From contig JAEOTD010000055.1 in the NCBI GenBank assembly GCA_016839995.1, forward strand, positions 1 to 60,350: a stretch of DNA of 60,350 nucleotides, written 5' to 3'. Below the pieces are notes generated by a model. That model had not been told where the DNA came from, searched no databases, and was given only the letters and a program-made list of their open reading frames with translations. This DNA comes from Candidatus Hermodarchaeota archaeon (lineage in GTDB: Archaea; Asgardarchaeota; Hermodarchaeia; Hermodarchaeales; Hermodarchaeaceae). This document shows positions 10,453 through 60,189 of the stretch, in pieces. Numbering within the stretch: position 1 is the stretch's first letter; every line of letters starts with the position of its first letter. The position numbers and the translations under genes are program-made.

Positions 10453-11379
10453 TCACTCCTTGGTCTCTGAACCCTCATCCTTTGTTTTCGAGCTCTTGCT
10501 CTTCTTAGTAGTCTTGGGCTTCGCGTCTTTCTTCTCAGTCTTTGCCCGTTTGATGCGCTTTTTCGTAACCTTGGGTTCTTCTTCCGGTTTCTCTTCCATC
10601 TCTTTGGGAGCGTCTTTGTCTTCACCAATCTTTTCCCGAATTTGGGCATATTTTTCGAGAAGCACAGCTCGCTGCATTTCTTGGATTTGATGAATTCCTT
10701 CTTCTCCCATTCGAAGAGCTTCACTAAACTCTGCTGGAGTTAGTTTTCCATCCATTTGGAGAAGAGTGATTTCACCACGATCCGGAGCCATTGCCAGTGG
10801 TACATCAGCATCTCCGATTTTGTCTTCGATATCACTCAAATCCAAAACGACTTTGCCATCAATCTTTCCTGCCGCAACTCCCGCAACGAGTCCTCGCATG
10901 GGGATTCCGGCGTCGGCAAGGGCTAATGACGCTGCTGTGACGCTCGCACATCTTGATCCTCCATCGGCTTCAAGAACCATGATAAAAACATCAATTACTG
11001 CACGAGGGTACATCTTCAGAAATAGCATAGGTTCAAGTGCTTGACGTAGAACCATTGAAATTTCATGTTCTCGACGACTTGGAGCAGGACGTTTTCGGTC
11101 AGACACAGAAAACGTCGCCATCCGATATATTACGCGGAGCAGGACACGATCTGATTGGGCTAGATGACGCGGATGGAGTTCGCGCGGGCCGTACACCGCG
11201 GCTACAATCTTGTTTCTGCCATGTTCAATGTAAGCAGATCCATCTGCGCGACTAAGATTGCCCACTTGCAATTTTATTGGTCGTAGTTCATCGAGTTTTC
11301 GACCATCTGCACGTCGCCCTTTTGCATCTATCAATGGCTGTTCTGCTTCAGCTTTTTTCTCACTCATTTTATTCACCAT
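10453..11379 (-). CDS. rrp41: exosome complex exonuclease Rrp41 with Lys/Glu-rich C-terminal tail
   Basis: 308 aa. RADGRKLDELRPI plus an RNase PH core. The last ~60 aa (PKEMEEKPEEEPKVTKKRIKRAKTEKKDAKPKTTKKSKSSKTK) are low-complexity extension. Confidence 0.9.
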   Translation of the reverse strand: MVNKMSEKKAEAEQPLIDAKGRRADGRKLDELRPIKLQVGNLSRADGSAYIEHGRNKIVAAVYGPRELHPRHLAQSDRVLLRVIYRMATFSVSDRKRPAPSRREHEISMVLRQALEPMLFLKMYPRAVIDVFIMVLEADGGSRCASVTAASLALADAGIPMRGLVAGVAAGKIDGKVVLDLSDIEDKIGDADVPLAMAPDRGEITLLQMDGKLTPAEFSEALRMGEEGIHQIQEMQRAVLLEKYAQIREKIGEDKDAPKEMEEKPEEEPKVTKKRIKRAKTEKKDAKPKTTKKSKSSKTKDEGSETKE

Positions 11380-12070
11380 TTAATTCCGCAAGCTTTTGAT
11401 TTATGAAATCCCGAACACGATCAGTTAATCCACTAGTATGTGCTTCGCGTTCGATTTGTCGAATTGCTTCAGTTGCAATTTTCATGCGCTTAGGATTCCC
11501 CTTTACCCACACTATTCCGTTTTGCCCGACGACAATATCAATCTGAAGATCTGATTTGAGCATATTAATCATAGACCCTTTTCGACCAATTAGCCGTGGG
11601 ACACGAGTAGGAATAATGGTTAGAAGCATCCCACCACGAACCTTTCCAAGACCTCGACCTAGAGTGGTAACCAAGGGATCTCTTGTTCGGTCTGCTGCAA
11701 TGATTTCAGCGACCACCGTTTCACCTATGTCATAGTATCTTCTGAGGTTTTCTTTAGCGTGGACTGCATCTCGACGGGATAATGCATGCATGACGGGAAG
11801 CATTGCTGGGTATGGGCTGTGAAAATCAAGTAGCCATCCATTCAGCGTAACTTCCACAACGTTGCCAATTATGATATCACGAACCTTTGGAATATATTGT
11901 CCCTTCAGGGGAACAACATAGACCGTTTTGCCTTTCATTTTCGCCACACCGATAACTGAGGCGAATACTTTCTCTTGTTCTTTGTAGGCTCCATCACCAT
12001 TTCGAAAATCGCCTTCGGCGAGGAGCTGTCCAGGAACGACAATATCTTGTTGTTCAAAATGAATTGACAC
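11369..12070 (-). CDS. rrp4: exosome complex RNA-binding protein Rrp4
   Basis: 233 aa. S1 plus KH architecture (IGRKGSMINMLK is the KH GxxG region). Conserved synteny. Confidence 0.9.
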   Translation of the reverse strand: MSIHFEQQDIVVPGQLLAEGDFRNGDGAYKEQEKVFASVIGVAKMKGKTVYVVPLKGQYIPKVRDIIIGNVVEVTLNGWLLDFHSPYPAMLPVMHALSRRDAVHAKENLRRYYDIGETVVAEIIAADRTRDPLVTTLGRGLGKVRGGMLLTIIPTRVPRLIGRKGSMINMLKSDLQIDIVVGQNGIVWVKGNPKRMKIATEAIRQIEREAHTSGLTDRVRDFINQKLAELNGE

Positions 12071-12085
12071 GGTTGGTTTAGCCTC

Positions 12086-12835
12086 CTATAGTGTTTCCTT
12101 TTTCAAAATTTTGATTTCAGCTCGACCACGAGTAAGATTATTGAGGGCATCAATGAGTTCCCCGCGAAGTCCAGCCGGAACCTCAACGATGGCAATCCAT
12201 GACCCATCCTTTTGCCATTCTTCCTTCACGATATGTCCTTGACGTTCTACAATTCCGTAGCCTTTGGGAGCAAAGTCGGGAGGGATTTTCACCGCGATTT
12301 GTTGGATTTCCATACGGATCGGGATGATGGGTGCCAATGCCTTGACTACTTCACGGGCTTGTTCTTCTGCACTCTGAGTAGAGTCAATTACGACATGAGC
12401 TTCTTCCATCGCGGATTCAATACGTGTTGGTGGATGCGGTAGACCAGTTTTGGGATTGATTGAGTTACGGACGATGATGTCAATTACTTGCCGTCGCCGT
12501 TTCTCCACCATCTCACGACGTTGTTCGGTCGTAAGTTGAAGAGAGCCTTTTTCAAGAATTACGCGAGCGATTTCAAGTTCATCCGTGGTTCCAAAGGCTT
12601 CTTCCAGCGCTTCAATTGGAGATTTTTTACTTCGAAGTGCATCTTCAAAGATTGTTTCTCCACGAAGTATTTCTCGAAATTCGATGTCTTCTCCCTGCTT
12701 GAAGTTCCAAGCTAATTTGGGATCAACAATAATTTCGAATCGATGCCCATGGGTTTCTAATTGGGCTAAAGCTGCATCACCTAGATCGACACGTTTGTCG
12801 CCGCGCATTCCACCCATTCCAGACATGACATTCAC
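12086..12835 (-). CDS. ribosome maturation protein SBDS/Sdo1
   Basis: 249 aa. AQLETHGHRFEIIVDPKLAWNFKQG is the typical SBDS N-terminal domain. Superoperon position. Confidence 0.85.
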   Translation of the reverse strand: MNVMSGMGGMRGDKRVDLGDAALAQLETHGHRFEIIVDPKLAWNFKQGEDIEFREILRGETIFEDALRSKKSPIEALEEAFGTTDELEIARVILEKGSLQLTTEQRREMVEKRRRQVIDIIVRNSINPKTGLPHPPTRIESAMEEAHVVIDSTQSAEEQAREVVKALAPIIPIRMEIQQIAVKIPPDFAPKGYGIVERQGHIVKEEWQKDGSWIAIVEVPAGLRGELIDALNNLTRGRAEIKILKKETL

Positions 12836-12846
12836 CTTTCCTTAGA

Positions 12847-13569
12847 TTACGCCGAATTCAAGATTTGTTGAATGGCCTTTTCTTTTAGTTGCACGAATTT
12901 CTTATCCGCGGTTGTTACTTTGGCAGCTACAAGTCCCTCAGGTTGGAGGGGAGTGGCATTGGTTTCCTTATGTATTCGAATGGCGAGATGTAGAGCTTCC
13001 TCAACGGTGAGAGAAGGGGAATATTCTTTTTCCAGCATTGAATTCATTTGGTCAGCACCCATACCAACTGCATGGGCCTTATAGCTCCAAAAGGCTCCAA
13101 TTGGCGTTGTGAGATAGAGTTGAGGTGCTGAGTCAACACCGATGAGGAGCATGGACACCCCATAGGGTCGGGTTCCTCCTTGCTGAGTGTAAGATTGAAT
13201 ATGGTCACTGACTTTCTTACTTAGCGTTTTTACTGGAATCGGTTCATCGAAAGTTAAGTGGTTGATTTGCGCCAGCTCACGGGTGTATCGTACAAGATGG
13301 CGTGCATCACCTGACAGCCCCGCAATTGCGGTACCAATCGATGTGTCAATAGTGAAGATTTTGTCATTGTGGTTGGGTTCCTGAAGAGCATGTTTTCTTA
13401 GTGCTGCGGTTAATACCACACCATCTGAACCGCGAATTCCCATGATTGGAGTACCCTTTCGAACCGCCTCAAAGGCGTATTCAACCTGAAATAGGCGTCC
13501 CTCTGGACTAAATGTAGTTAAGGCAATATCATAGCTTTGGGTGTTACCTAACAACGAGGGGTCCTCCAT
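12847..13569 (-). CDS. psmA: proteasome subunit alpha
   Basis: 240 aa. YDIALTTFSPEGRLFQVEYAFEAV signature. Confidence 0.95.
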   Translation of the reverse strand: MEDPSLLGNTQSYDIALTTFSPEGRLFQVEYAFEAVRKGTPIMGIRGSDGVVLTAALRKHALQEPNHNDKIFTIDTSIGTAIAGLSGDARHLVRYTRELAQINHLTFDEPIPVKTLSKKVSDHIQSYTQQGGTRPYGVSMLLIGVDSAPQLYLTTPIGAFWSYKAHAVGMGADQMNSMLEKEYSPSLTVEEALHLAIRIHKETNATPLQPEGLVAAKVTTADKKFVQLKEKAIQQILNSA

Positions 13570-26998: not shown

Positions 26999-27202
26999 CT
27001 AAGTTTCTTTCTCCTTAGGAGCTTTTTCGGGTTCTTTGCTTTTCTTGGAGGGTTTGAATTCAGTAAAACCACAGCTGCCACAGTGAAATCGATTAGCATG
27101 TTCGGCCATGAATGTGCCTTCTCCGCAGCGTGGACAGGACCTGCGCTTTCGATCAAGTTTGCCATCCTTGCCAACTGAATAATATTCGTGAGTTTTTGAC
27201 GT
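26999..27202 (-). CDS. rps27ae: 30S ribosomal protein S27ae (eS31), apparently without a canonical start codon
   Basis: Frame encodes ...[43 protein letters not shown] plus a K-rich tail, with stop TAG at 27001-26999. It is bounded upstream by in-frame TGA (27211-27209). There is no ATG/GTG/TTG before the zinc ribbon. ACG at 27202 lies 6 nt after AGGTGA. This gene is absent from the ORF track. Confidence 0.8.
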
Positions 27203-27244: not shown

Positions 27245-27778
27245 TCATTTCTTCTTAGGAGCTTTTTTGGGCTTCCCCTTTGGAGGAGCAGCCTTGGGTT
27301 CTTCCTTCTTTACCTCGGTTTCGGGCTTTTCTTCTTTTGGTGGCGCTTCCTTCTTCGTAGGAGGCTTTTCCTCTTTCGGTTTAGGTTTCTCTTCCTTCTT
27401 CGTAGGAGGCTTTTCCTCTTTCGGTGGTTCTGTTGGCTCTTCACCCTTTCCTTCTGGAGCGGGGGGAGTGGGTTCCACAGCAGGTGGTGGGGTTGCTTCC
27501 TCGATAGTGTGACGCTTTATGATGTAAGCTTGTTCGTGTGTAAGCGCAGCTTCTTTGGTAGGATAGAGATGTGCATAGCCTTGAGAGGTTGATTGTCCAT
27601 ATAACCCAGAGAGCTTTATGATGTAGAGTTGATCTTCTTTTGAATTTAGCATGGCGGCGAGTTTTGCGCGGACATCGTTACGAGGAGGAGTTGCAGTTCC
27701 TGAATGATCAACTAGGAATGTGATGTCCTGACGGTTAAGGAGCGAATTCTCATGTTTTTCTTCAATCTTGATTTTCAT
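27245..27778 (-). CDS. rps24e: 30S ribosomal protein S24e (eS24) with ~85-aa Pro/Lys/Glu-rich C-terminal extension
   Basis: MKIKIEEKHENSLLNRQDITFLVDH is the typical S24e start (ATG 27778). The tail is PPPAVEPTPPAPEGKGEEPTEPPKEEKPPTKKEEKPKPKEEKPPTKKE...KKAPKKK. Confidence 0.9.
   Translation of the reverse strand: MKIKIEEKHENSLLNRQDITFLVDHSGTATPPRNDVRAKLAAMLNSKEDQLYIIKLSGLYGQSTSQGYAHLYPTKEAALTHEQAYIIKRHTIEEATPPPAVEPTPPAPEGKGEEPTEPPKEEKPPTKKEEKPKPKEEKPPTKKEAPPKEEKPETEVKKEEPKAAPPKGKPKKAPKKK
27346..27425. repeat. 35-nt perfect direct repeat at 45-nt period inside the S24e tail
   Basis: cttccttcttcgtaggaggcttttcctctttcggt occurs at 27346-27380 and again at 27391-27425. Confidence 0.9.
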
Positions 27779-28571: not shown

Positions 28572-29180
28572 CTATTTCTCCTTTGCCTTGTCTTTTCCTT
28601 CTTTCTTTTTCTCTGCTTTTCGCTTGGATTCAATTAATCTAGCGATCTCTTCCTTAATCCACTCGAATTTGCCCAGAAAAGGCTGTCGCATTGTCAAGCC
28701 AAGTTTGCCACTTCGTGCTCCGCCATCAATGCTTACCGCGACGATTCGTGTGCGAACTAAATCCCCTTCCGTGATGACTCGACCAGTTTCCTTGCCGACA
28801 AGAGCCGCACTACGGGGATCGTATGAGAAAAAGTCATCAGTAATCTGACTTACGTGACATAGACCATCCAATGGACCGAGTCGAATGAAAGCGCCGAAAT
28901 CAACAACTTCGACGACCTCACCTTGGGTGAGAAAGTTGACTTTGGGCTCAAAGGTGAGAACGTTCAGGGTGACGTCATGATAAGTGGCGCCATCACCAGG
29001 AATTATCTTACCTACACCAATATCGATTACTTCAGTTACAGCGATGATAAAGCCGAGATCCACGTCGATTATGCCTTCATATTGTTCACGGAGAATTTCT
29101 TCGGCAACTTCGTAGAGGTCTTCACTGAACCGATTCGGCGGAATGCGCACATGACCTTTAATGGAAACCGCTTGGTAGAT
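28572..29180 (-). CDS. rpo7: DNA-directed RNA polymerase subunit Rpo7 (RpoE'), probable ATC initiation
   Basis: S1-domain Rpo7 with VRIPPNRFSEDL and a K-rich C-terminus. The homology-expected N-terminus (x-YQAVSIKGH-VRIPP) begins at ATC 29180, 7 nt after GGAGG. The first canonical codon is GTG 29150, which would remove ~10 conserved-position residues. Confidence 0.8.
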   Translation of the reverse strand: MYQAVSIKGHVRIPPNRFSEDLYEVAEEILREQYEGIIDVDLGFIIAVTEVIDIGVGKIIPGDGATYHDVTLNVLTFEPKVNFLTQGEVVEVVDFGAFIRLGPLDGLCHVSQITDDFFSYDPRSAALVGKETGRVITEGDLVRTRIVAVSIDGGARSGKLGLTMRQPFLGKFEWIKEEIARLIESKRKAEKKKEGKDKAKEK

Positions 29181-34198: not shown

Positions 34199-34558
34199 TT
34201 ATTCTTTCTTTGCTTTGGACTTGGTAGCTGACTTCTTTGCGGGTTTTTTCGCTTTAGGTTTGGCTGCTTTTTTAGTTGGCGGTGACTTTGTTTCTTTCTT
34301 AGCTGGCGTTTTAGCTTTTGGTTTCGCTTTTGCCTTGGCTTTTTTCCTCTTCCGTGCAGCCTGAGCTCGACGCCGTGTTCGTTCTTCATATACTTCTGTC
34401 CACTTCAAGCGTCGTGCTGTACGTTTTAGTATGGTTTGATTTCGTCGACATTTACTCGAACACAGGTAGAAGAGACTCCCATCGTTTTTCACATAGATTG
34501 AACCAGTCCCAGGTTCAACGTCTGTGCCACAGAAAGTGCAGGTATATTTTTTGACCAT
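34199..34558 (-). CDS. rpl24e: 50S ribosomal protein L24e (eL24) with Lys/Ala/Pro-rich tail
   Basis: CTFCGTDVEPGTGSIYVKNDGSLFYLCSSKCRRN, followed by a ~50-aa KAKAKPKAK...KAKKE tail. Confidence 0.93.
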   Translation of the reverse strand: MVKKYTCTFCGTDVEPGTGSIYVKNDGSLFYLCSSKCRRNQTILKRTARRLKWTEVYEERTRRRAQAARKRKKAKAKAKPKAKTPAKKETKSPPTKKAAKPKAKKPAKKSATKSKAKKE

Positions 34559-35331: not shown

Positions 35332-36480
35332 TCATTTTCGAATGCGTCGATCGGCTTTGAATTCAATGAAATCCTCATATACGCGGTATTCAAGCCACTC
35401 CCGAGTTGGTCCCGTGACGACCAAGGGAGCTTGTGATAATTCCTTGAGATTAGAGGCTCCAACAAGAAACATCGCTGCTTTCAACCCATGAATCAGGGAT
35501 TCGAGAAAGAGTTGAACCGCCTTGGCATCAAGGACCGCAGGAGAGAGTACTGGAAGGGCAACACCAGCGAAATCTGCCCCGATTGCTATTGCTTTGGCAA
35601 TATCAATACCGGTGCGAATACCTCCGGAAGCTATGACAGGGATTCGTTTCTTCACTGAATAAGCGACTTCGAAGGTTGCGACGGCCGTGGGGATTCCCCA
35701 GTTAGTGAACCATCGACCTAAAGTTGCTTTCGTGGCATCCTCAGGCTTTGCCCGCTCCACTTCCACTGCGGGCCAGCTTGTGCCACCTAACCCTGCGACA
35801 TCAAGTGCTTTCACACCTGCATTCGCTAAGATTGTGGCAGTGGATTGGCTGAGTCCCGCACCAGTTTCCTTGGCAATGAATGGAGTTGATACATTAGTGG
35901 TAAGGGTCTTGAGAGCTTGAAGAACTCCAGCAAAGGTCGCCTCTCCTTCAGGTTGAACCGCCTCTTGTGCAGCATTGAAATGAATCGCCATCGCATCTGC
36001 CTTAATCATCTCAATCGCTGTCTTGATTTCCTCAACACCCCAACCTAAGGAAAGTTGAGGGGCACCAATATTACCAATTAAAAACGCTTTGGGTGCATTT
36101 TCTCGCGTGACTGTAAAAGAATCCGCCAGGGAAGCGTCTTCCACGGCTGCACGTTGACTGCCGACACCCATGGCGAGTCCCAATGCTTCCACAGCCTGGG
36201 CGATGTGTTTGTTTATAGGTAGGGCTTCTTGATGACCTCCAGTCATCGCGGTGACTATAAGCGGTGCCTTAAGTTGATGACCAAGAAACTGTGTCTCAAC
36301 GTTTACATCATCGAGATTAATTTCGGGAACGGCGTTATGAACGAGCGTGATATCATCAAATCCTGTCGAGATAGTGGATTCTATTTCCCGTTCTAAACAA
36401 ATTCGAATATGTTCCAGTTTTCGACTTTCGGTGAGTTTTTTCTTTTCCTTTGATTTCGCTTTCGAACGCGTTTTCACCAA
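35332..36480 (-). CDS. fni: isopentenyl-diphosphate delta-isomerase, type 2 (FMN-dependent)
   Basis: 382 aa. RKLEHIRICLE, MTGG, GVGSQR, and ASGGIRTGIDIAKAIAIGA. Short K-rich N-terminal extension. Confidence 0.9.
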   Translation of the reverse strand: MVKTRSKAKSKEKKKLTESRKLEHIRICLEREIESTISTGFDDITLVHNAVPEINLDDVNVETQFLGHQLKAPLIVTAMTGGHQEALPINKHIAQAVEALGLAMGVGSQRAAVEDASLADSFTVTRENAPKAFLIGNIGAPQLSLGWGVEEIKTAIEMIKADAMAIHFNAAQEAVQPEGEATFAGVLQALKTLTTNVSTPFIAKETGAGLSQSTATILANAGVKALDVAGLGGTSWPAVEVERAKPEDATKATLGRWFTNWGIPTAVATFEVAYSVKKRIPVIASGGIRTGIDIAKAIAIGADFAGVALPVLSPAVLDAKAVQLFLESLIHGLKAAMFLVGASNLKELSQAPLVVTGPTREWLEYRVYEDFIEFKADRRIRK

Positions 36481-42616: not shown

Positions 42617-43582
42617 TCACTTCGATTTCTTCTTCTTGGATTTGGAGGCAGCTTTTTTCTTGGTCGAGGTAGTTTTAGATTTCTTTGGAGCCTTCTTTTT
42701 GGTGGTCGTTTTCTTTTTCTTGGTAGTTTTGGGCTTAGTAGGGGCAGCCTTTTTGGCTTTCGGCTTTGCAGTGACTTTGGGTGCTCGCCCAGGAAGAAGC
42801 TTGATAAGTTCTTCGTATTTCTTCCGGAAGACATCCAGTCCTTTCTCAACGATTTGCTCAGGGGGAGCAGCGCCTGTGGATTCGATTGTTACAATGAAGC
42901 TATTTTCATCATAGGTAACTTTGATTGCTTGAACATCACATGTTTCTACACACAGATTACACATCGTACAATTCATTTCATCGACTACTACAGCCTTGTT
43001 GTCCTGCATTTTGAAAACTTGTCGAAAACAAGCATTCACACATTCTTTGCATCCATCACATTTCTTGGCATCAACTTCCACGTGGGGAATCATTTTGTAA
43101 GCCATGGTGGATACGGGTTGCCACTTGGCATGGTCTAGCCCAATTCCCAACCGGGCATACGCTTCAACGACAATTCGTTGACCCTTTGCCATTTTTGCAA
43201 TTGGAATCTTATCACTAACAGGAACAGTGTCTGGATCTTGAGGTTTTAGGTCTCCCGTCGTAGCAAGAAACCCATCTTCGGGGGCTTCTACTTCCATGGT
43301 GAATCCTGCTTGACATAGGTGACAACCTGCCCCCTCACATGTACATTCTGAGGAGAGGACGTAGGTGTCAAAATTAGTTGTCAATGGAACAAGACCAAGA
43401 CGATGAGCGATAATTTCGTCAAAGAGAGGTGATTGGTTTTCAAGGATTACAACTTCTTCAATAGCCATCGAGGGGGTTTCCGCTATGATGATACGGCGTA
43501 TGGCATTCATTAGACCAGGACGTACTTCTTCTACACGTAAAGTAAGGGTGTCTTCTGTTTTTTCAAGTACGGTTATTTTCAT
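42617..43582 (-). CDS. rpoD: DNA-directed RNA polymerase subunit Rpo3 (RpoD) with ferredoxin-like 2x[4Fe-4S] motifs and Lys-rich C-terminal tail
   Basis: MKITVLEKTEDTLTLRVEEV start at ATG 43582. CDGCKECVNAC and CTMCNLCVETC motifs. The last ~55 aa are APKVTAKPKAKKAAPTKPKTTKKKK...SKKKKSK. The longer ORF-track start overlaps rps11. Confidence 0.9.
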   Translation of the reverse strand: MKITVLEKTEDTLTLRVEEVRPGLMNAIRRIIIAETPSMAIEEVVILENQSPLFDEIIAHRLGLVPLTTNFDTYVLSSECTCEGAGCHLCQAGFTMEVEAPEDGFLATTGDLKPQDPDTVPVSDKIPIAKMAKGQRIVVEAYARLGIGLDHAKWQPVSTMAYKMIPHVEVDAKKCDGCKECVNACFRQVFKMQDNKAVVVDEMNCTMCNLCVETCDVQAIKVTYDENSFIVTIESTGAAPPEQIVEKGLDVFRKKYEELIKLLPGRAPKVTAKPKAKKAAPTKPKTTKKKKTTTKKKAPKKSKTTSTKKKAASKSKKKKSK

Positions 43583-43622: not shown

Positions 43623-44291
43623 TTATACTCTTCGACCACGACGGCCTCCAGGACGGCGTGTACCGTCATGAGGCATTGGTGTAACTTCCTCAATTCGACC
43701 AATTCGTAGACCTGCACGTGCAAGGGCACGGATGGCTGCTTGAGCGCCTGGACCAGGAGTTTTTGGTCCATGACCACCGGGAGCCCGAACTTTGATGTTT
43801 ACTCGAGTGATGTCTTTATCCATTGCTGCACGGGCTGCGCGAAATGCCGCTTGCATCGCAGCATAAGGTGAGCTTTCATCGCGATCTGCCCGTACAATCA
43901 TTCCGCCGGATGCACGAGCGATAGTTTCGGCTCCTGTAATGTCGGTGATGTGCACGATGGTGTCATTATAGGAACTGTAAATGTGTGCAACTCCCCATTT
44001 TTCTTTGCTGTCAACGGGAGTGGGTGTACGAGCACGTCCCCCTGAACGAGGTGGGCGAGTCCGAGTTCGTCGGGCTGGTTTCTCCTCTTTCTTCTCCACG
44101 GATTTGGGAGTCGCTTTTTTCTTTGCAGGTTTGGCTTCTTTCTTTTCGGCTTTTTCAGGTTCTTTAGTTTCTGTGGGAGTTTCTTGCTTAGTGTCTTCAA
44201 CCACAGGTTCTGGTTTCGGCTTCGGCGCTTTTTTGGGTTTCTTTTCAGGCGCTTCTTCCGGTTCCTTTGGGGTTTCCTTTTCTTCTGCCAT
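43623..44291 (-). CDS. rps11: 30S ribosomal protein S11 (uS11) with ~90-aa Lys/Glu/Pro-rich N-terminal extension
   Basis: The core is [22 protein letters not shown]...VRAPGGHG.... The N-terminus is [28 protein letters not shown].... Confidence 0.92.
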
Positions 44292-44318: not shown

Positions 44319-45050
44319 TTACTTTGCTCCCTTTTTCGTTGAGACCGCTTTCTTTTCCTTCGCAGGAGGTTCTGAGGGTACTTCCTCGCTCTCAACTTCT
44401 TCAAGGTCTTCTTCTTTGTCTACTTCTTCCTCGAGTTCAACTTCTTTGATTTCACGAACCTTCGGAATCTTGACTTCAATTTTCTCTTTCAGAGCAGGTT
44501 CTGGGATCTCAGGGGTCGGGGCCGGAGCAGTGACTTCACCCTTTGGAAGTTCGGGGTGCAAAGAGTGACCATAGGGGCTTTTTGGAGCATATTTGAGCTG
44601 TTTTTCCTGATCCCGATAAAGTAGCATACCTGGAGAAGTTACACGATGCTTATCCAATACAATATGTCCATGAACAATCAATTGGCGAGCATGATGCATC
44701 GTCTTAGCTAGACCCTGACGCAACACCTGTGTTTGGAGTCGCCGTTCGAGCACATCCCGGATAGTCAAATTCAAAATGTCATCAAGTCGTGAATCTTTAC
44801 CAATGAGCGCTAGGCGGGTGAGTCGACCGATTAGTTGACCTTCTCGTACTACTCGTTCTTCAATAGAGAGTGCAACAAGATCTCGTGCAGTACCACGAAA
44901 CTGAGTGAGTTGGGTTCGATGTTTCCAGAGCTCCCGTTTATTCCGTAGCCCATATTCCCCGACGTAGATGAGTTCCTCAGCAAGTCGTGTCTTTTGCCAA
45001 GGATGGCCGGGTGCAACGTATTTCTTCTTTGGTTTGCGTATTCCGCCCAT
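44319..45050 (-). CDS. rps4: 30S ribosomal protein S4 (uS4) with ~75-aa Pro/Glu/Lys-rich C-terminal extension
   Basis: GGIRKPKKKYVAPGHPW, plus an S4 domain. The tail is APAPTPEIPEPALKEKIEV...ELEEEVDKEEDLEEVESEEVPSEPPAKEKKAVSTKKGAK. Confidence 0.92.
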   Translation of the reverse strand: MGGIRKPKKKYVAPGHPWQKTRLAEELIYVGEYGLRNKRELWKHRTQLTQFRGTARDLVALSIEERVVREGQLIGRLTRLALIGKDSRLDDILNLTIRDVLERRLQTQVLRQGLAKTMHHARQLIVHGHIVLDKHRVTSPGMLLYRDQEKQLKYAPKSPYGHSLHPELPKGEVTAPAPTPEIPEPALKEKIEVKIPKVREIKEVELEEEVDKEEDLEEVESEEVPSEPPAKEKKAVSTKKGAK

Positions 45051-47818: not shown

Positions 47819-48469
47819 TTAGTAGCCGGTGGTCATTGAGGTGCCTAAGAATTTCTGGATAACCATGTTCATCGTGAAGCTACAAATGATGTACCAGTAG
47901 ATGTACAGTAACCCCATGCCCCCGAATGGAACTCCTGGAGAGTAGAGTCCGGTATCAACCCATTGCCCAGTCTGCCAGCCAAATCCGTTACCAAAAGGAC
48001 CTAATACCGATGCAAAGTTTAGGGGTGACCAGATCACCGGTGATGGAACAGCAAACCCCGGAAATGCAACCCCTGGATCAACAAAGACGCCGTTCATAGT
48101 GGTATAAATCAAGATGAAAGGAACAATTGTGATTAGCATCGGGACAAACGACTGTTTACTCACATCACCTTGGAGTTTCATGATGTACCGTTCACGTCGT
48201 TTGATCTTCAGTTCAAGTTTCCGTCGTGCCTTGGGATCTGTTTCTTGCTTGACTTTCTTCTTCATTTCGTTATACTTGTTGATTTCTTCTCGAGAGCGTT
48301 TCAATCGGTCATAGTCAATGAAACGCCGGTTCACCAAGTTTGATGTCAACGAGATTACTACACTGATTAATAACACGACGAGTGCAGACAGAGGGGGAAA
48401 GGCCCATAGACCTAAAGCGCCTCGAATGGCGACGGCGATATCAATTAGAATATTTTGCAAGGTTATCAC
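47819..48469 (-). CDS. DUF106/EMC3-TMCO1-like membrane protein (archaeal YidC/Oxa1-like insertase candidate)
   Basis: 216 aa. TM1, then a basic coiled coil (KKKVKQETDPKARRKLELKIKRRERYIMKLQ), then further TMs. Conserved secY-adk-DUF106-cmk synteny. Confidence 0.65.
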   Translation of the reverse strand: MITLQNILIDIAVAIRGALGLWAFPPLSALVVLLISVVISLTSNLVNRRFIDYDRLKRSREEINKYNEMKKKVKQETDPKARRKLELKIKRRERYIMKLQGDVSKQSFVPMLITIVPFILIYTTMNGVFVDPGVAFPGFAVPSPVIWSPLNFASVLGPFGNGFGWQTGQWVDTGLYSPGVPFGGMGLLYIYWYIICSFTMNMVIQKFLGTSMTTGY

Positions 48470-50763: not shown

Positions 50764-51435
50764 TTATGTTTTGGTTCTGGTCTTTGCCTTGCCTTTTGTA
50801 GCTGTCGCTCGTTTCGGTTTTGCCTTCGTGGTACTCGTCTTTTTCGGCTTTGCAGCGGTCTTGGGTTTAGTTTTCCTTGTTGTTTTGGGTTTAGCCTTAG
50901 GTTTAGCCTTAGGTTTAGCCTTAGGTTTAGCCTTAGGTTTAGCCTTAGGTTTTGGTGGTTCTGTCAAGGAGGGAGCGGGGTGTGCAGTTGGCTCTTGAAC
51001 GTTTCCTTTTATTTTCCCTCCGGCGGCCTTGATTTTCTCGGCAGCACGATGAGTAAAAAGAGGCGCAGTAATGGTTAGAGGAATTGAGATGCGTCCTGCA
51101 CCCAGCACCTTATCGTACCCTTGAGTAGTCAAATTAATCGTAATTGGAGCGTCTTTTGCGGGTTTTTTACCTTCCATGAACAGGGAGAGGTTTCGGGCAA
51201 TTTCACCCACGTTGATTGTTGTGTGATCCTGTCGGAGCTTGGGGTGACGGTGGAAACCATGTTTACCAAACCGATCGGGATCATGGGCGGTGACATAGGT
51301 CCAGTCGTGTTTCTTGCCACCGGTTTTCCCTTTTCCACCTCGTTGGCCACCTTTGCGGTGTTGCCCGATGCGTCCATAGCCATGTTGGCGATAGCCGCGA
51401 CGTTTCCGGACTTTTTTGGGTTTTCGTATGCTCAT
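50764..51435 (-). CDS. rpl15: 50S ribosomal protein L15 (uL15) with ~70-aa (KPKA)n C-terminal tail
   Basis: MSIRKPKKVRKRRGYRQHGYG...GGQRGGKG. The tail is EPPKPKAKPKAKPKAKPKAKPKAKPKTTRKTKPK.... Confidence 0.93.
   Translation of the reverse strand: MSIRKPKKVRKRRGYRQHGYGRIGQHRKGGQRGGKGKTGGKKHDWTYVTAHDPDRFGKHGFHRHPKLRQDHTTINVGEIARNLSLFMEGKKPAKDAPITINLTTQGYDKVLGAGRISIPLTITAPLFTHRAAEKIKAAGGKIKGNVQEPTAHPAPSLTEPPKPKAKPKAKPKAKPKAKPKAKPKTTRKTKPKTAAKPKKTSTTKAKPKRATATKGKAKTRTKT
50888..50952. repeat. perfect 12-nt tandem repeat (5.4 copies) encoding (KPKA)n
   Basis: ggtttagcctta is repeated head-to-tail five times with no substitutions, then followed by ggttt. Confidence 0.95.
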
Positions 51436-51449
51436 GTTGATTTTCTCCA

Positions 51450-51989
51450 TTAACGTTTCTGAAGTTGGATTTCTAAGATGCCATTGTTGTAACTGGTTTT
51501 GACTGAGTCGATGTCAACAGGGGCAGGCAGGTCGATATCTTTGGCATATTTTCTGTTTGTGGATTCGACCTGAATTGTAACACTATAATCTGTGACTTTG
51601 ACGTTGATTTCGTCCTTTTTTACACCTGGTAGTTCTGCAATGATTATAACCGCATCATCTTGTTCCATGACATCGATGAGGGGTTCTCGCTCATCTCGGA
51701 CCACAGGTGGTGATCCGTCAGGGCTGAGATTGCCAAAGGGGTTCAGTCGCATCTTACCATCTGGTCCGATGCCTGCAGAGAAGCCCCAGACCATGGGATT
51801 CTTTTGTAATTGCTTAAAAATTTCTTCTAGCTGATGTTGGGCATCGGGTCCAAACATATCTTCGGGTGTGACATCGGAAAACATTTTCATGATTTCTTCA
51901 AACATGCGTTGGAGCGCTTCGAATTGCGCATCGGTGGATTCATCGTCCCACCAGCGTTTACGTTTCCGGCGATCGTCTTCGTCTGCCAT
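51450..51989 (-). CDS. hsp20: small heat shock protein (Hsp20/alpha-crystallin family)
   Basis: Alpha-crystallin domain IDVMEQDDAVIIIAELPGVKKDEINVKVTDYSVTIQVES...DLPAPVDIDSVKTSYNNGILEIQLQK. ATG 51989 lies 6 nt after AGGAAGGA. Confidence 0.85.
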   Translation of the reverse strand: MADEDDRRKRKRWWDDESTDAQFEALQRMFEEIMKMFSDVTPEDMFGPDAQHQLEEIFKQLQKNPMVWGFSAGIGPDGKMRLNPFGNLSPDGSPPVVRDEREPLIDVMEQDDAVIIIAELPGVKKDEINVKVTDYSVTIQVESTNRKYAKDIDLPAPVDIDSVKTSYNNGILEIQLQKR

Positions 51990-52021
51990 GGTTATTCCTT
52001 CCTGTTTTCGTATCATTCCTC

Positions 52022-55700: not shown

Positions 55701-55714
55701 TTTCTTTTCCACCT

Positions 55715-55864
55715 CTAGCTAAATTTGCGAAATCCCAGCTCTTCGGCGACTTCTCGGAAGCATCGCCGGCATAAGCCGATATTGTAACTACGAATGATGG
55801 CGCGGTGTGTCCCGCAGCGCTTACAGTTTCGGTGACCTTTACCCTGCTTTTTCTCCTTTGACAT
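55715..55864 (-). CDS. rps14: 30S ribosomal protein S14 (uS14, zinc-binding type Z)
   Basis: 49 aa, below the ORF-track cutoff. [49 protein letters not shown]. The ATG overlaps the rpl5 stop by one nt. Confidence 0.92.
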
Positions 55865-56526
55865 CAGTATTCATCCTCCAGCTCAGGTCGAGTAAATTGA
55901 ATTCCCAACTCAGTTGAGAGAATCGACATCGCCTCATCTGGGGTGATGCGGTGACGGCGTGGAACCTTATGCCTCGCTCGGCGGCGCCGATTAATCCGGA
56001 AACCGGGTCGTTCGGTGCAAATACACACATCCATTCCAAAGATCCCCAGATTTGGATCGTACCTTACACCAGGAATTTGGATGTGTTCGGAGATACCAAA
56101 GCTGACATTCCCAGCATGATCAACAGCACTAACAGGGATTTGGAAATCGGAGACGTCCAAGGCGCGTTTGGCAAAGTCTTTAGCTTTTTCACCACGCAGA
56201 GTTACTTTACAGCCCATGGGTTCTCCTTGCCGGAGACCAAAATCACGATTGGTTCGTTTTGCAAGTACGTCAACAGGTTTTTGTCCCGTTAATTCTTCAA
56301 GAACTGATTTGGCTTTCGCTAGTGGTTCACCACCGGTTCCCAACGACATATTGACAACCACCTTTGAAATGAAGATTTGTCGCATTACATTCCCCTTCTT
56401 AGCCTTGGGCTTGGGTGCTGGTTGGGGCTTTGCTGGTTTTGCTGCAGGCTTAGCTGGTTTAGCCTTCGCTCGGGTGGTTCGTTTCGCTGTGGTTTTAGGT
56501 TGAGCTGCTTTCTTTGCGGTTGACAT
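55864..56526 (-). CDS. rpl5: 50S ribosomal protein L5 (uL5) with ~45-aa Lys/Ala/Pro-rich N-terminal extension
   Basis: The core starts at MRQIFISKVVVNMSLG. The N-terminus is STAKKAAQPKTTAKRTTRAKAKPAKPAAKPAKPQPAPKPKAKK. Confidence 0.93.
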   Translation of the reverse strand: MSTAKKAAQPKTTAKRTTRAKAKPAKPAAKPAKPQPAPKPKAKKGNVMRQIFISKVVVNMSLGTGGEPLAKAKSVLEELTGQKPVDVLAKRTNRDFGLRQGEPMGCKVTLRGEKAKDFAKRALDVSDFQIPVSAVDHAGNVSFGISEHIQIPGVRYDPNLGIFGMDVCICTERPGFRINRRRRARHKVPRRHRITPDEAMSILSTELGIQFTRPELEDEY

Positions 56527-56528
56527 GG

Positions 56529-57269
56529 TTAGCTAGCCTCCGGAATAGAAATCAAGGGTGCGTCTTCACCGAGAGGGAAGACATAGCGAATTGCGGTCAG
56601 AATTGTCTGATCTCCGCTGGTCTGGATTGTTCCGAGTCGATTCTCGGGATCAATTTTGACAAGTTTACCCACGTTGCCCTTGTGGTCGCCGCCAGTGATT
56701 ACGGCGGTGATTCCCTCTTTGAGAGGGATGTGCTCCTGAATAGATTGATCTGGTAATTTGATCAGAAGTGTGTCGCCGGGGCTGTACTTTTCTTTGGGCT
56801 TTGCTTTGGGGTCTTTGACTTTAATCAGAATTGTTCGTCCATCATGTAGATGGAGTTGGATGTTACCCTTTGTAACCGTGTTCTTACCTGTAATTTTACA
56901 GGGCTTGAGGTTGAGTTCTTTCTTCGGAATCTTAAAGAGTTGGAGTAGATGCCGAGAATCGGGCACCACACGAACCTGGGTCTTGGTTGCTGCAATCTCA
57001 ATAACATCCATTAATCCGACAGAATATTTGTAGTCTTTTCGAACGCGTCCATCGACCTTCACTTGACCTTCAGCGATAACCCGTCGGGTTTCACCAAGTG
57101 TGCTAGTGAGCTGGAGCATGTCCCGAACTACAACGCCTAATGGAATACACTCATGAATTGCGTGGGGTCCTGGATTGGCGCGGATAGTGAAAGGACGAAC
57201 TTTGCGCTTAATCTGTAAGTGGCCAGGAGCAGCTAATCGTTTCATGTGTTTTCGAGGACCTTTTGCCAT
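56529..57269 (-). CDS. rps4e: 30S ribosomal protein S4e (eS4)
   Basis: MAKGPRKHMKRLAAP start. ATG 57269 lies 8 nt after GGAGGA. Confidence 0.93.
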   Translation of the reverse strand: MAKGPRKHMKRLAAPGHLQIKRKVRPFTIRANPGPHAIHECIPLGVVVRDMLQLTSTLGETRRVIAEGQVKVDGRVRKDYKYSVGLMDVIEIAATKTQVRVVPDSRHLLQLFKIPKKELNLKPCKITGKNTVTKGNIQLHLHDGRTILIKVKDPKAKPKEKYSPGDTLLIKLPDQSIQEHIPLKEGITAVITGGDHKGNVGKLVKIDPENRLGTIQTSGDQTILTAIRYVFPLGEDAPLISIPEAS

Positions 57270-57273
57270 CTGT

Positions 57274-57660
57274 CTAATCCTCCTTTTCAGCAAGCCCAGC
57301 ACGGGCAGCTGCTTTTCGATCGATGACGGCTTGACGTGTTTTGTCAATTTCTAATTTAGTGATCATGACGTTCTCTGGACGAATGGGGAACGGAACAGCT
57401 GAGCCATCCACCTTTTCGATGGTGATGTTTTCGATGCTCAGTTTGAGGTTCTTCATATCGACTTCCAGTACATCGCCTTCGGAGTCGCGGAAAGCTCCAC
57501 GAGTGATATACACGGTGTCACCTTTTCGGATGGGAATCCGCTTGATACCATGCTTATCCGCAATTTCTGGGGCCAGTTTGGCGGTGAGGTATTTGTGGCG
57601 TCGGTGCCACGGTGCAGTGTATCGCGCTTTGCGCTGTTTCTTGGGTTTTCGAGAGGTCAT
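57274..57660 (-). CDS. rpl24: 50S ribosomal protein L24 (uL24)
   Basis: MTSRKPKKQRKARYTAPWHRRHKYL plus KOW IRKGDTVYITRGAFRDSEG. The upstream part of the 212-aa ORF overlaps rpl14 out of frame. Confidence 0.93.
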   Translation of the reverse strand: MTSRKPKKQRKARYTAPWHRRHKYLTAKLAPEIADKHGIKRIPIRKGDTVYITRGAFRDSEGDVLEVDMKNLKLSIENITIEKVDGSAVPFPIRPENVMITKLEIDKTRQAVIDRKAAARAGLAEKED

Positions 57661-57673
57661 TTTATCTTTGCTC

Positions 57674-58096
57674 CTAAACGATGATGCTGGCAACGCTGGC
57701 AATTCGGGGCCACCGTTCAGCTGCTTCTCGGGCGATTGGGCCGCGGATTTCAGATCCCAGTGGATCACCGGTTTCTCCGGTGATGACAATGGCATTGTCT
57801 TCAAAGCGTATCCACTGACCGCCTTTTCGTCTGTAGGGTTTCCGTTGTCGGACAATGATGCCTCGAAGAACTTGTCGACGCATCTTGGGAGTGCCGGCTT
57901 TACAGGTGACAACGACCATATCTGCGACGCTGGCTGCCGGCTGACGACGAAGCCGCCCGTGATAACCGATAACTGAAATTACTTCGACAATTCGTGCACC
58001 ACTGTTATCGGCCACTGTTAGACGGGCACCAGTGGGAAGGCCACGACTAATCCGAGTCTTTGCCACACCTGCGGTTTTTCGCCCTCGTTTTACCAT
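57674..58096 (-). CDS. rpl14: 50S ribosomal protein L14 (uL14)
   Basis: 140 aa. LTVADNSGARIVEVISV. Confidence 0.95.
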   Translation of the reverse strand: MVKRGRKTAGVAKTRISRGLPTGARLTVADNSGARIVEVISVIGYHGRLRRQPAASVADMVVVTCKAGTPKMRRQVLRGIIVRQRKPYRRKGGQWIRFEDNAIVITGETGDPLGSEIRGPIAREAAERWPRIASVASIIV

Positions 58097-58440
58097 TATT
58101 CAGTTGCCTCCTGGGTTTTCACTCGCTCCACAACGACATGGGATACTGTCTTACTCAATTGTCGACATTCAGCAATCCGTACAGTGTCACCCACTTCGAG
58201 TGGAATGCATGGAGGATGATGAGCTGCTGTCATGGAGTGGCTCCGTGCGTACCGACGATATTTCTTGATGAACCGTAGGTAATCACGACGCACTGTAATC
58301 GTGCCCCTCATCTTTGTACTAGCCACCACGCCTTCGAAAACACGTCCTCTAACTGGGAGAGTCCCATGAAATGGGCAGTGAGGATCTTCGCATTCCTCTT
58401 CGGGTGCCTTAACTTTTAGACCAATATCACGAGCTACCAT
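58096..58440 (-). CDS. rps17: 30S ribosomal protein S17 (uS17)
   Basis: 114 aa. CEDPHCPFHGTLPVRGRVFEGVVASTKM. Confidence 0.95.
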   Translation of the reverse strand: MVARDIGLKVKAPEEECEDPHCPFHGTLPVRGRVFEGVVASTKMRGTITVRRDYLRFIKKYRRYARSHSMTAAHHPPCIPLEVGDTVRIAECRQLSKTVSHVVVERVKTQEATE

Positions 58441-58721
58441 CGTAGTTTTTTCGCCCTCCTTAAGCGTTCTGCGGGATGCCCCAACAGGGCTTGCCCATCA
58501 ATGTCCACTGTCTCGCCACTGGGCAACGACAGTTCAAAGAGACTTGAGGTCTTCGGAACACTTCGGTTTCGAAGGCCATCAGAGAGTGTAAGCATATTAT
58601 GAGTGTCATCAACAATGACACCTGAAATCCTGTGGAAAGCAGGATTCGTGGCACGCTTCACTACAGCGTTCAAACCAATGAGCGGATAGAGTGTGAGACG
58701 AGGTGGATACTGCATGCTCAT
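58434..58721 (-). CDS. rnp1: RNase P protein component 1 (Rpp29/Pop4)
   Basis: 95 aa. Conserved slot between rpl29 and rps17. LIGLNAVVKRATNPAFHRISGVIVDDTHNMLTL. Confidence 0.8.
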   Translation of the reverse strand: MSMQYPPRLTLYPLIGLNAVVKRATNPAFHRISGVIVDDTHNMLTLSDGLRNRSVPKTSSLFELSLPSGETVDIDGQALLGHPAERLRRAKKLRW

Positions 58722-58951
58722 TTGCCTCCTCCCAACTCTTCTGCGACCACTTGACGTGCCTCTTCATTATTCACCGTAAGAATTCGTGCAATGTTTTTCC
58801 GAATACCTCGAATAACGCCAGGATTTTCCATACCCGCCCCAGACATCATCGCAGCCCGTTGCTTGGCAAGTTCAGCCCTAAGTTCTTCGAGTTTTCGATC
58901 CCGTTCTTCAAGATTCATGTTCCGAATCTCTTGCATCGTAAGTAATGCCAT
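58718..58951 (-). CDS. rpl29: 50S ribosomal protein L29 (uL29)
   Basis: 77 aa. MQEIRNMNLEERDRKLEELRAELAK. Confidence 0.92.
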   Translation of the reverse strand: MALLTMQEIRNMNLEERDRKLEELRAELAKQRAAMMSGAGMENPGVIRGIRKNIARILTVNNEEARQVVAEELGGGK

Positions 58952-58971
58952 AACCCATTCGCCTCCGCATC

Positions 58972-60189
58972 TTACTTCTTCGAAGACTCCTTCTTGGTTT
59001 TCGTAGTCTTAGCCTTAGACTCCTTGGACTTTGACTTCGTTGCCTTCTTAGTCGATTTCTCGGTCTTGGTCTTCGTGGAAGCTTTGGCCTTAGTCTTGGG
59101 TTTTGCCTCAGCCTTCGCCTTTTTGGGTTCAGCTTTCTTCTTCGGCTTTACCTCAGTTTTCGCCTTCTCTTTCTTCGCTTTTTCTTTCGGCTTAGCTTTG
59201 GCTTTAGGTTTCGGTTCTGCTTTTGCCTTGGCCTTGGGCTTAGCTTCAGCTTTTTCTTTCTTCGTTTTAGGCTTAGCCTTCGGTTTCTCCTCAGTGACTT
59301 CTTTCTTTTTCTTCACTTTGGGCTTCTCGGCTTCCTTCTTAGGTTTAGCCTTGGGTTTCGTCTTCGGCTTTTCAGGTTCTTTGGGTGCCGGTTTCTCTTC
59401 CGGTGGAGGAACCTCCTCCGGCACCGGCGCGGGTGACACAGGAACTTCTGGCTCCACCGAATCAGGCACCGGTTCAGCACCCTCATCGACGAACTCTTCG
59501 ATTGGTGGCGCTTCTTCAATCGGCAGTTCCTCTTCAATCACTTCGATGTCAGCAGCTTCAGGAGCAGGGGCAGGCATGGGTTGCACTTCCACTTCCCGAT
59601 GCATAATGACAGGGCGATCCGGAGCAATGGCATCCGGTAACATAATTCGTACTTGGATCCCCAACACGCCAGGTTTCATAATTGCAAAAGCCCAGCCATG
59701 ACTCACAGCAGTTCGAATCGGTTCCCCAGTTTTTGCCACAAAGCCACTACGGAATTTCTGATACCGCGCTCGTCGACTGGTCAGCTTCCCCGCGATGGCG
59801 ATTTCTACACCCTTTGCTCCAGCACCAATGATGCGACGAAGGACACCATAGGCGGCACGCCGGAAGTGGTCACCCCGTTCAAGTCGTTGTGCCAATCTTT
59901 CAGCCATAATGGAGCCGTTGAGTTCAGGAACTTCGACTTCACTAACTTCAATTTGTGGTGTTTCTAATCCGAAATCGTGTTCGAGGGTTTCAGTTAACTC
60001 GCGCACCGTTGTGCCGCGGCGACCAATGACCATACCCGGGCGTGCTGCATAGACAACTACGCGCATACCTAGCGGGGTCTTTTGGAGGTCTACACCAGCA
60101 TAGCCGGCACGCCGAAGCTCCTGGCGTAAATAGTCATTCACTTTCACCTTCAGCAATCCACGATTGATAAAATGATCTTCCGCTGGCAT
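58972..60189 (-). CDS. rps3: 30S ribosomal protein S3 (uS3) with ~205-aa bipartite C-terminal extension
   Basis: KH-domain core (VIGRRGTTVRELTE). Residues ~201-270 are acidic and Pro-rich. Residues ~270-405 are Lys-rich (KPKAKPKKEAEKPKVKKKKE...KTKKESSKK). Confidence 0.93.
   Translation of the reverse strand: MPAEDHFINRGLLKVKVNDYLRQELRRAGYAGVDLQKTPLGMRVVVYAARPGMVIGRRGTTVRELTETLEHDFGLETPQIEVSEVEVPELNGSIMAERLAQRLERGDHFRRAAYGVLRRIIGAGAKGVEIAIAGKLTSRRARYQKFRSGFVAKTGEPIRTAVSHGWAFAIMKPGVLGIQVRIMLPDAIAPDRPVIMHREVEVQPMPAPAPEAADIEVIEEELPIEEAPPIEEFVDEGAEPVPDSVEPEVPVSPAPVPEEVPPPEEKPAPKEPEKPKTKPKAKPKKEAEKPKVKKKKEVTEEKPKAKPKTKKEKAEAKPKAKAKAEPKPKAKAKPKEKAKKEKAKTEVKPKKKAEPKKAKAEAKPKTKAKASTKTKTEKSTKKATKSKSKESKAKTTKTKKESSKK

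Follow-up and report, generated by a model that had tools for sequence, protein, structure and literature searches.

Lysine-rich low-complexity tails on ribosomal, RNA polymerase and exosome proteins in a lineage of Hermodarchaeota

Introduction

Eukaryotic ribosomes, polymerases and initiation factors bear charged, disordered extensions of unclear origin. A stretch of DNA from a Candidatus Hermodarchaeota archaeon (contig JAEOTD010000055.1 of assembly GCA_016839995.1; 60,350 nucleotides, hereafter the window) raises the question of whether an archaeal lineage has added such tails to its own core machines, and what they would be for. A first-pass annotation of the window, made from the nucleotide letters, had reported long terminal extensions rich in lysine (K), proline (P), alanine (A) and glutamate (E) on ribosomal, RNA polymerase and exosome proteins. 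The window is the whole 60-kb contig of a 1.66-Mb metagenome-assembled genome that is about 75% complete; it holds the main ribosomal-protein operons, exosome genes and RNA polymerase subunit genes, all on the minus strand. The uS3 genes nearest to its own come from Candidatus Hermodarchaeum yapensis and from other Hermodarchaeota or 'Promethearchaeota' assemblies. In a sample of 151 Asgard genomes, the source genus has 14 other sampled species and its family one further genus, called the sister genus below.

Results

Eleven canonical proteins in the window bear terminal extensions

Every candidate protein was translated and then identified by Pfam. Eleven canonical proteins (uS3, uS11, eS24, uS4, uL15, uL5, eL24, eS31, Rpo3, Rpo7 and Rrp41) bear real terminal extensions of 17-205 residues, rich in K, P, A, E and threonine (T), that have no counterpart in the Pfam cores, in solved archaeal structures or in most Asgard orthologues (Table 1). 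Together with serine (S), these residues make up 73-100% of each tail. Lysine accounts for 16-47% of the tails (24-47% outside the acidic uS4 tail, whose last 15 residues are K-rich) compared with 5.3% of the proteome, a content far beyond chance. The tails are translated, predicted to be intrinsically disordered, and mostly polycationic, with a K/P/A/T composition that is often interrupted by E-rich stretches; disorder prediction was run for uS3.

The first-pass annotation had counted at least 12 tailed proteins. Translation, Pfam and composition bore this out for 11 of them, and its length estimates all lay within about 10 residues of the measured tails. The remaining candidate, IDI2, was set aside as marginal, because its K-rich N-terminus falls under the scan threshold and hinges on an uncertain TTG start.

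The extensions were delimited by alignment with archaeal chains in the PDB, as had been proposed. The archaeal uS3 chains (186-229 amino acids [aa]) aligned to residues 2-203 of the query, those of uL15 (140-165 aa) to residues 8-147, those of eS24 (96-107 aa) to residues 1-93, and those of eL24 (53-67 aa) to residues 4-66. Solved archaeal orthologues thus end where the cores end, and the tails are therefore additional to the canonical cores. One PDB outlier of uS3, 318 aa long, aligned to residues 2-266. Chain 9p8h_SD (454 aa), considered as a solved long uS3, was rejected as mammalian uS3 deposited twice in tandem.

Besides its tail, Rpo3 holds two complete 4Fe-4S ferredoxin-type motifs (Pfam Fer4 families).

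Table 1. Coordinates of tails, repeats and other features (aa, amino acids; net, net charge; positions refer to the window unless a contig or genome label is given)
Feature	Position	Strand	Details
uS3 gene	58972..60189	-	405 aa, core 1-200; Pfam KH_2 and Ribosomal_S3_C end at residue 182
uS3 acidic E/P-rich block	59395..59589	-	residues 201-265; pLDDT ~40
uS3 motif IEVIEEELPIEEAPPIEEFVDE	59482-59547	-	within the acidic block
uS3 K/P/A/E-rich basic block	58975..59394	-	residues 266-405; conserved end ...SKKESSKK
uS3 tail tandem repeats	59159-59260	-	12, 15, 24, 30 bp, in frame
uS11 N-terminal tail	44007..44291	-	95 aa, net +8; gene 43623-44291; Pfam Ribosomal_S11 starts at residue 100
eS24 C-terminal tail	27248..27490	-	81 aa, P/E/K-rich, net +5; gene 27245-27778; Pfam S24e ends at 95
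eS24 tail repeat	27347-27423	-	21 bp, 3.5 copies
uS4 C-terminal tail	44322..44540	-	73 aa, net -9, mostly acidic; gene 44319-45050
uL15 C-terminal tail	50767..51000	-	78 aa, (KPKA)n, net +26; gene 50764-51450; Pfam match ends at 147
uL15 tail repeat	50888-50952	-	perfect 12 bp, 5.4 copies; TRF 100% matches
Rrp41 (exosome RNase PH subunit) C-terminal tail	10456..10659	-	68 aa, net +6; gene 10453-11379; Pfam RNase_PH_C ends at residue 227; K-rich segment score 32
Rpo3 (RNA polymerase subunit D) C-terminal tail	42620..42784	-	55 aa, 47% K, net +26, no acidic residues; gene most likely 42617-43582
Rpo3 tail repeat	42693-42730	-	18 bp
eL24 C-terminal tail	34202..34369	-	56 aa, net +24; gene 34199-34558; Pfam L24e ends at 63
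eL24 tail repeat	34310-34343	-	12 bp
uL5 N-terminal tail	56392..56526	-	45 aa, net +15; gene 55864-56526; Pfam Ribosomal_L5 starts at 46
eS31 (S27a) C-terminal K/E/P tip	27005..27055	-	17 aa; Pfam Ribosomal_S27; segment score 18
Rpo7 C-terminal K/E tip	28575..28643	-	23 aa; gene 28572-29150; Pfam SHS2_Rpb7-N and S1 end at 137; segment score 16
IDI2 (FMN-dependent isomerase family), possible K-rich N-terminus	36421..36480	-	~18 aa; Pfam FMN_dh; marginal
Hsp20/alpha-crystallin gene	51450-52016	-	Pfam
EMC3/TMCO1-like (Oxa1-superfamily) membrane protein gene	47819-48469	-	
aIF2-beta gene	G000:C37:2586-3329		K-rich N-terminal extension
Methionine aminopeptidase gene	G000:C124:6578-7630		K-rich N-terminal extension
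HdrA-MvhD fusion gene	G000:C40:6339-8900		K/P/A tip
Partial eL13e-domain protein	G000:C36:14766-15524		K-rich linker
K/T-rich stretch at contig edge	G000:C89:3-320		80 residues
Congener 23S insertions	L056:5608-5857, L057:401-663, L058 about 454-1155		

The tails are translated and appear to have grown by slippage

Each tail is an unbroken continuation of its core frame. All nine tails tested gave positive in-frame codon log-odds (trained on other contigs) and contained 0 stops; the other frames mostly held stops. In 10 related uS3 genes from independent assemblies, the frame is open for 355-436 codons and closes with the same ...SKKESSKK-type end. Tandem repeats were found within five tails, and their periods (12, 15, 18, 21, 24 and 30 bp) are all multiples of 3; such in-frame repeats at the DNA level suggest that the tails grew by slippage.

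These results bear on the possibility that the tails are artefacts of mis-assembly, a wrong frame or unrecognised stops. A long open frame on the plus strand (58994-59701) mirrors the lysine codons and was rejected as a gene; it demonstrates that runs of lysine codons can create spurious frames. Nothing was found that speaks for an artefact. The independent assemblies, the in-frame codon usage, the multiple-of-3 repeats and the purifying selection on uS3 contradict that explanation, to which we attach practically no weight.

The uS3 tail is under purifying selection

The longest tail, that of uS3, comprises residues 201-405 (205 aa, 30% K, net charge +23), an acidic block followed by a basic one. 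AlphaFold2, run on a 36-sequence alignment, gave a predicted local distance difference test score (pLDDT) of 74-93 for the core and of about 40 for residues 201-405, with no secondary structure in the latter. The ratio of nonsynonymous to synonymous substitution rates (dN/dS), taken from pairs with unsaturated synonymous sites, was 0.02-0.04 for the core, 0.18-0.42 for the acidic block and 0.05-0.18 for the basic block; estimates for the acidic block reach down to 0.10, against 0.03 in the core. Purifying selection thus acts on the tail as well, with a constraint five- to ten-fold weaker than on the core. Within the acidic block, the motif IEVIEEELPIEEAPPIEEFVDE is nearly invariant in all 10 relatives and has hydrophobic residues at regular spacing. 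It might serve as a docking peptide and not just as filler.

Lysine-rich segments are enriched on ribosomal proteins

K-rich segments were counted by a six-frame scan free of gene calls, with a strict window or a relaxed score, because gene calling by codon usage placed starts too far out and overlooked uS11, eS31 and uL24. In the 1.66-Mb genome, the scan returned 26 open frames (strict) or 35 segments (relaxed), 9-10 of them in the window. K-rich segments thus number only about 33 among about 1640 genes, and all those of at least 40 residues lie on information-processing or unannotated proteins. The proteome survey that the first-pass annotation had suggested yielded a clear enrichment: of the 31 ribosomal proteins in the window, 7 pass the K-rich threshold, whereas 24 do so among the roughly 1605 remaining called genes (odds ratio 19, p = 8e-7). 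Its statement that metabolic and membrane proteins of the window are tail-less also held, for SecY, the kinases, AcnX, a proteasome subunit and Hsp20.

Outside the window, the information-processing carriers identified by Pfam are aIF2-beta (N-terminal, 67 aa), methionine aminopeptidase (MetAP; N-terminal), a fusion of eL13e with helix-hairpin-helix motifs (K-rich in the linker), proteins of the LSm, Toprim and winged-helix types, and two PhoU/AbrB regulators. The metabolic and chaperone carriers (an HdrA-MvhD fusion, an HdrA-like protein, a polyferredoxin, a NuoC-like subunit, GrpE and an SPFH-like protein) bear tips of 15-32 residues. For eight tail-bearing frames (C9, C19, C36:8874, C51, C59, C90:15337, C91 and C118) Pfam gave no match, and no histone was detected among the carriers in this incomplete genome.

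The eL13e fusion is unusual: the K-rich linker connects a partial eL13e domain to two helix-hairpin-helix motifs (Pfam). In another frame, at a contig edge, a K/T-rich stretch precedes a sequence in which the start of ribosomal protein eL33 was recognised by eye; Pfam gave no match to this truncated frame.

The tails are restricted to the lineage and differ among Asgard families

The same architecture is present in dozens of independent assemblies (NCBI, JGI, ENA and Logan). The 20-kb ribosomal clusters of relatives were compared in 20, and later 60, Asgard genomes. The length and charge of the uS3 tail follow relatedness. Relatives with a core identity of at least 87% have uS3 proteins of 355-436 aa and tails of mostly positive net charge (-6 to +35); the lysine fraction is 0.22-0.33 in 37 such orthologues, two truncated entries excluded, and the tail spans 155-236 aa across the genus. 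At a core identity of 76-82%, the proteins measure 267-373 aa, and the net charge is about zero (+9 to -7) at 78-82% and -12 to -27 at 76-77%. The tails of Odin, Loki, Hel, Hod and Asgardarchaeia (22-100 aa) are acidic (net -5 to -29), and an Atabeyarchaeia-like group has its own uS3 tail of about 100 residues with EKK repeats at the end.

The source genus shares the tails on uS3, uL5, uL15, uS11 and Rpo3 together with the acidic uS4 tail, the last extending 40-45 aa beyond the alignment in congeners (net -6 to -8). The sister genus shares the uL5 and uL15 tails; its uS3 tail is net acidic. The N-terminal tail of uL5 (45-54 aa, net +10 to +17) was found in all four family members compared and varies little in length, as does the uL15 tail, present in both genera; in other Asgard families the uL5 N-terminus measures 12-40 aa with a net charge of about 0 or below. 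The uS11 tail is 80-99 aa in congeners (lysine fraction 0.21-0.24) and 67 aa and not K-rich in the sister genus. That of Rpo3 measures 42-63 aa in congeners, 12 aa in the sister genus and 2-11 aa in other Asgard families.

Outside the ribosomal clusters, the aIF2-beta tail occupies an open-frame flank of 65-124 aa in the genus (about 65-85 aa if counted from the likely start), shortens to 38-58 aa in the sister genus, and is absent from a 53%-identical relative of 136 aa. The HdrA-MvhD fusion, a redox enzyme, has a K/P/A tip of about 24 aa in 11 of 11 complete congeners and of about 11 aa in sister-genus members; each of the 15 full-length family orthologues examined retains the HdrA tip. Wherever the terminus was recovered in a family orthologue, both the aIF2-beta and the HdrA tails were present.

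Other Asgard families, which lack these tails, decorate other ribosomal proteins, often acidically. Families f6 (L045, L046 and L130), f27 (L125) and f4 (L132) carry large tails of their own. In one family, eL32 bears a K-rich N-terminal tail (138-164 residues, net +30) and uL18 a C-terminal one of about 70 aa (net +27). In a single f4 genome, uS3, uS4 and uS11 carry K-rich tails, and its relatives have acidic ones. uS11 is tailed in two other Asgard families; elsewhere, long acidic tails occur on uL24, eL32 and uS3. The first-pass annotation had proposed to check whether related lineages share the trait: all congeners examined carry the tails, and the sister genus carries some. Its suggestion of a lineage-specific decoration of the ribosome is in accord with these findings, the tails being lineage-restricted additions to canonical cores. 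In this comparison, made without a rooted tree, some tails appear to be as old as the family and others as young as the genus, a pattern suggestive of stepwise accretion.

The main rival to a functional explanation is near-neutral accretion, in which the tails would be by-products of slippage in AAG/CCN/GCN-rich DNA, tolerated at exposed termini and weakly purged in small, slow populations in sediment. The tandem repeats, one of them perfect, the spread of uS3 tail lengths within one genus, the K-rich tips on unrelated metabolic proteins and the decoration of different proteins with either charge sign in different Asgard families all speak for it. However, the dN/dS of the uS3 tail is well below 1, and both the C-terminal motif and the acidic motif within this tail are conserved. 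All congeners have tails of the same charge sign and of similar length at the same termini of the same proteins, and for uL5, uL15, aIF2-beta and HdrA this holds across two genera. Furthermore, the tails are costly, because they sit on the most abundant proteins of a lysine-poor proteome, which also counts against near-neutrality. We judge this explanation to be unlikely, though it deserves serious attention.

Discussion

Tails as polycationic arms

We propose that the tails are non-specific electrostatic arms that bind RNA and DNA, and we put the probability of this reading at about 0.6. Although the tail sequences turn over quickly, members of the genus agree in where the tails sit, what they are composed of, the sign of their charge and roughly how long they are. 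Such arms would project from solvent-exposed termini and contact the phosphate backbone of rRNA, mRNA, nascent RNA or DNA; the ribosome, RNA polymerase, the exosome and aIF2 would thereby gain local affinity for nucleic acid and a larger capture radius. In uS3, the acidic block may fold back on the basic block, or on a partner, and in this way tune binding. Because short K-rich tips also occur on redox and chaperone proteins, the same mutational supply may act genome-wide, with long tails kept only where binding to a polyanion pays. Histone H1 C-terminal domains, actinobacterial PAKKA tails and eIF2-beta K-boxes may serve as working analogues, and lysine-rich low-complexity regions of prokaryotic ribosomal proteins have been proposed to bind nucleic acid (PMC6821194).

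Several points weigh against this role. The function is one that we infer in its entirety, and the location of the tailed termini on the solvent side of the ribosome is a matter of general structural knowledge. The dN/dS values come from few related uS3 pairs and from low-complexity alignments. Some tails are near-neutral polyampholytes rather than polycations: the net charge is +5 over 81 aa in eS24, +6 in Rrp41 and -9 in uS4. The conserved K-rich tips on HdrA, the polyferredoxin, the NuoC-like subunit and GrpE have no obvious nucleic-acid partner. Finally, tails are missing from 23 other ribosomal proteins of the window and from Rrp4, Rrp42, SBDS, three RNase P subunits, Cbf5, aIF2-gamma and aIF5B. 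With so many tail-less ribosomal and RNA-processing proteins, the association is therefore an enrichment and not a law. The earlier claim that the trait tracks nucleic-acid-associated proteins thus survives in part: the enrichment and the identity of the carriers of long segments support it, whereas three quarters of the window's ribosomal proteins and the majority of its RNA-processing proteins are untailed, and metabolic proteins carry tips. The segments also proved to be ordinary for the clade, which had been named as a possible objection, but they are not equally frequent on other proteins.

In a different proposal, tethered polycations would replace free long-chain polyamines in lineages unable to make spermidine. 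Spermidine synthase (SpeE; PF01564) was found in 8 of 27 Asgard families, and gave no credible hit in 19 of 19 genomes of the family under study (that of the window and 18 relatives); high-scoring AdoMet decarboxylases occur mostly in the same families as spermidine synthase. Nine SpeE-positive genomes from three families, each with at least eight cluster proteins recovered, had no K-rich segment on the ribosomal-protein cluster, whereas 8 of 12 SpeE-negative families have K-rich cluster tails. At the genome level this difference gave p = 0.002 (Mann-Whitney), with genomes that are not independent, but at the family level p = 0.08 (3 versus 12 families). Moreover, four SpeE-negative families have no tails, the SpeE-bearing family f19 shows segments of 18-24 aa in two genomes (each with only six cluster proteins recovered), and the association was noticed after the fact. 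We regard polyamine replacement as distinctly improbable.

The charge pattern of some tails raises yet another alternative. K blocks alternate with E-rich stretches in the uS3, uS11, eS24, Rrp41 and Rpo7 tails, as judged by eye and from composition, and uS3 is strongly charge-segregated. A grammar of K blocks with stretches rich in E marks nucleolar proteins, RNA polymerase I subunits and NOP56/58 among them, and its carrier changes between species (PMC10936679). The tails might accordingly be a condensate scaffold that drives phase separation or clustering of ribosomes, polymerase and exosome in a nucleolus-like manner. The blocks are present in several Hermodarchaeota tails, as an analogy only. 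The case is purely compositional, and the tails of uL15, uL5, Rpo3 and eL24 are plain polycations without E-rich regions, so that we hold a condensate scaffold to be most improbable. A broader version is a long shot: one cell-wide system, in which a nucleolus-like grammar, charge-segregated blocks included, spread over the ribosome, RNA polymerase, exosome, aIF2 and MetAP would gather the machinery of transcription, ribosome assembly and translation in an RNA-rich condensate or stand in for missing spermidine-type polyamines. If it were true, the cohesion of eukaryotic nucleoli would have a precedent among prokaryotes. Tails that reorganise the cytoplasm or replace polyamines would change the picture of Asgard cell biology.

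Neutralisation of extra rRNA or DNA charge, like condensate formation a conjectural meaning put forward by the first-pass annotation, led us to look at the rRNA as well. The genome itself has no 23S rRNA. The 23S fragments of two congeners are oversized; they contain group I introns (Rfam RF00028) together with an insertion of 701 nt in domain IV, where the site is conserved (model position about 2027), and in these intron-bearing fragments enlarged expansion segments were not demonstrable.

The tails are also of wider interest. The lineage illustrates how tails can arise quickly, through repeat slippage, on many core machines at the same time and then be held by selection. Since the choice of proteins, and even the sign of the charge, differs between sister lineages, Asgard ribosomes offer a natural experiment on why RNA machines acquire tails. 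In practice, annotators should keep such tails untrimmed, and structural studies of Asgard ribosomes should reckon with large masses that stay invisible.

Other features of the window

Two further genes in the window deserve mention. The Hsp20/alpha-crystallin gene lies between uL30 and uL15 in an otherwise very conserved ribosomal string. The EMC3/TMCO1-like gene lies downstream of SecY, between adenylate-kinase-like and cytidylate-kinase-like genes.

Comparison with known systems

As a kind, low-complexity tails of ribosomal proteins are known, archaeal S3 and S24e among them, and the present lineage is an extreme, lineage-wide case. In the literature, we found no description of such tails in Asgard ribosomal proteins, of their scale or co-ordination, or of the charge-variable, lineage-specific pattern. 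The survey of Ntountoumi 2019 (PMC6821194) described terminal, compositionally biased extensions on canonical ribosomal proteins and listed archaeal S3 and S24e among them; the Hermodarchaeota tails agree with these regions in terminal position, compositional bias, presence in relatives and, for uS3, predicted disorder. The regions in that survey average about 36 residues, and the archaeal ones are mostly Ala/Glu-rich, scattered and typically confined to one protein per genome, with 15% of archaeal ribosomal low-complexity regions containing at least 30% lysine. In contrast, the tails described here reach 205 residues, are lysine-rich, and occur together on at least eight ribosomal proteins as well as RNA polymerase, the exosome, aIF2-beta and MetAP. 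No Asgard genome was included in that survey.

A K/A/P-rich, disordered and repetitive tail on a conserved core is also found in histone H1 and in mosquito RPS6, which carries a histone-H1-like tail (PMC548281). In composition, the tails of uL15, uL5, eL24 and Rpo3 closely resemble such H1-like tails. This likeness is convergent: the carriers are different and belong to many complexes, there is neither an H1 globular domain nor homology, and Pfam found only ribosomal, polymerase or exosome domains, with no linker-histone match, on the tailed proteins. PAKKA tails likewise share lineage-wide K/A/P repeats on nucleic-acid enzymes. They are reported to modulate DNA binding by mycobacterial Ku (Mycobacterium smegmatis; PMC3553676), and lysine repeats make Streptomyces topoisomerase I processive, as the title of a study cited in PMC6821194 indicates. 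Those systems are bacterial DNA enzymes with a demonstrated function, whereas the Hermodarchaeota tails belong to the translation apparatus and their function is proposed.

For uS3, eS24 and eL24, eukaryotic extensions seem to lie at the same termini. The eukaryotic eIF2-beta has N-terminal K-boxes and MetAP2 a poly-lysine N-terminus, and the aIF2-beta and MetAP of the present genome are K-rich at the N-terminus likewise. The uS3 extension is C-terminal as in eukaryotes (243 aa vs 210 aa), and mammalian eL24 aligns over the tail, but eukaryotic uL15 has no extension, and eukaryotic ribosomal extensions are largely ordered on rRNA. The tails are not shared by the Asgard relatives closest to the origin of eukaryotes; other Asgard families lack them or carry acidic ones. 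Because the aIF2-beta tail is confined to one family and most Asgard orthologues have no tails, we interpret the resemblance as parallel evolution and not ancestry. The aIF2-beta tail, considered as an ancestor of the eukaryotic K-boxes, is for the same reason probably a case of convergence.

Within the Asgard archaea, the N-terminal tails of histones offer a comparison (bioRxiv 10.64898/2026.07.02.735847). These tails of 16-32 aa, from Loki and Hod lineages, are expressed and modified, and they share with the tails described here a disordered character, a lysine content above 30% and a location on abundant nucleic-acid-binding proteins.

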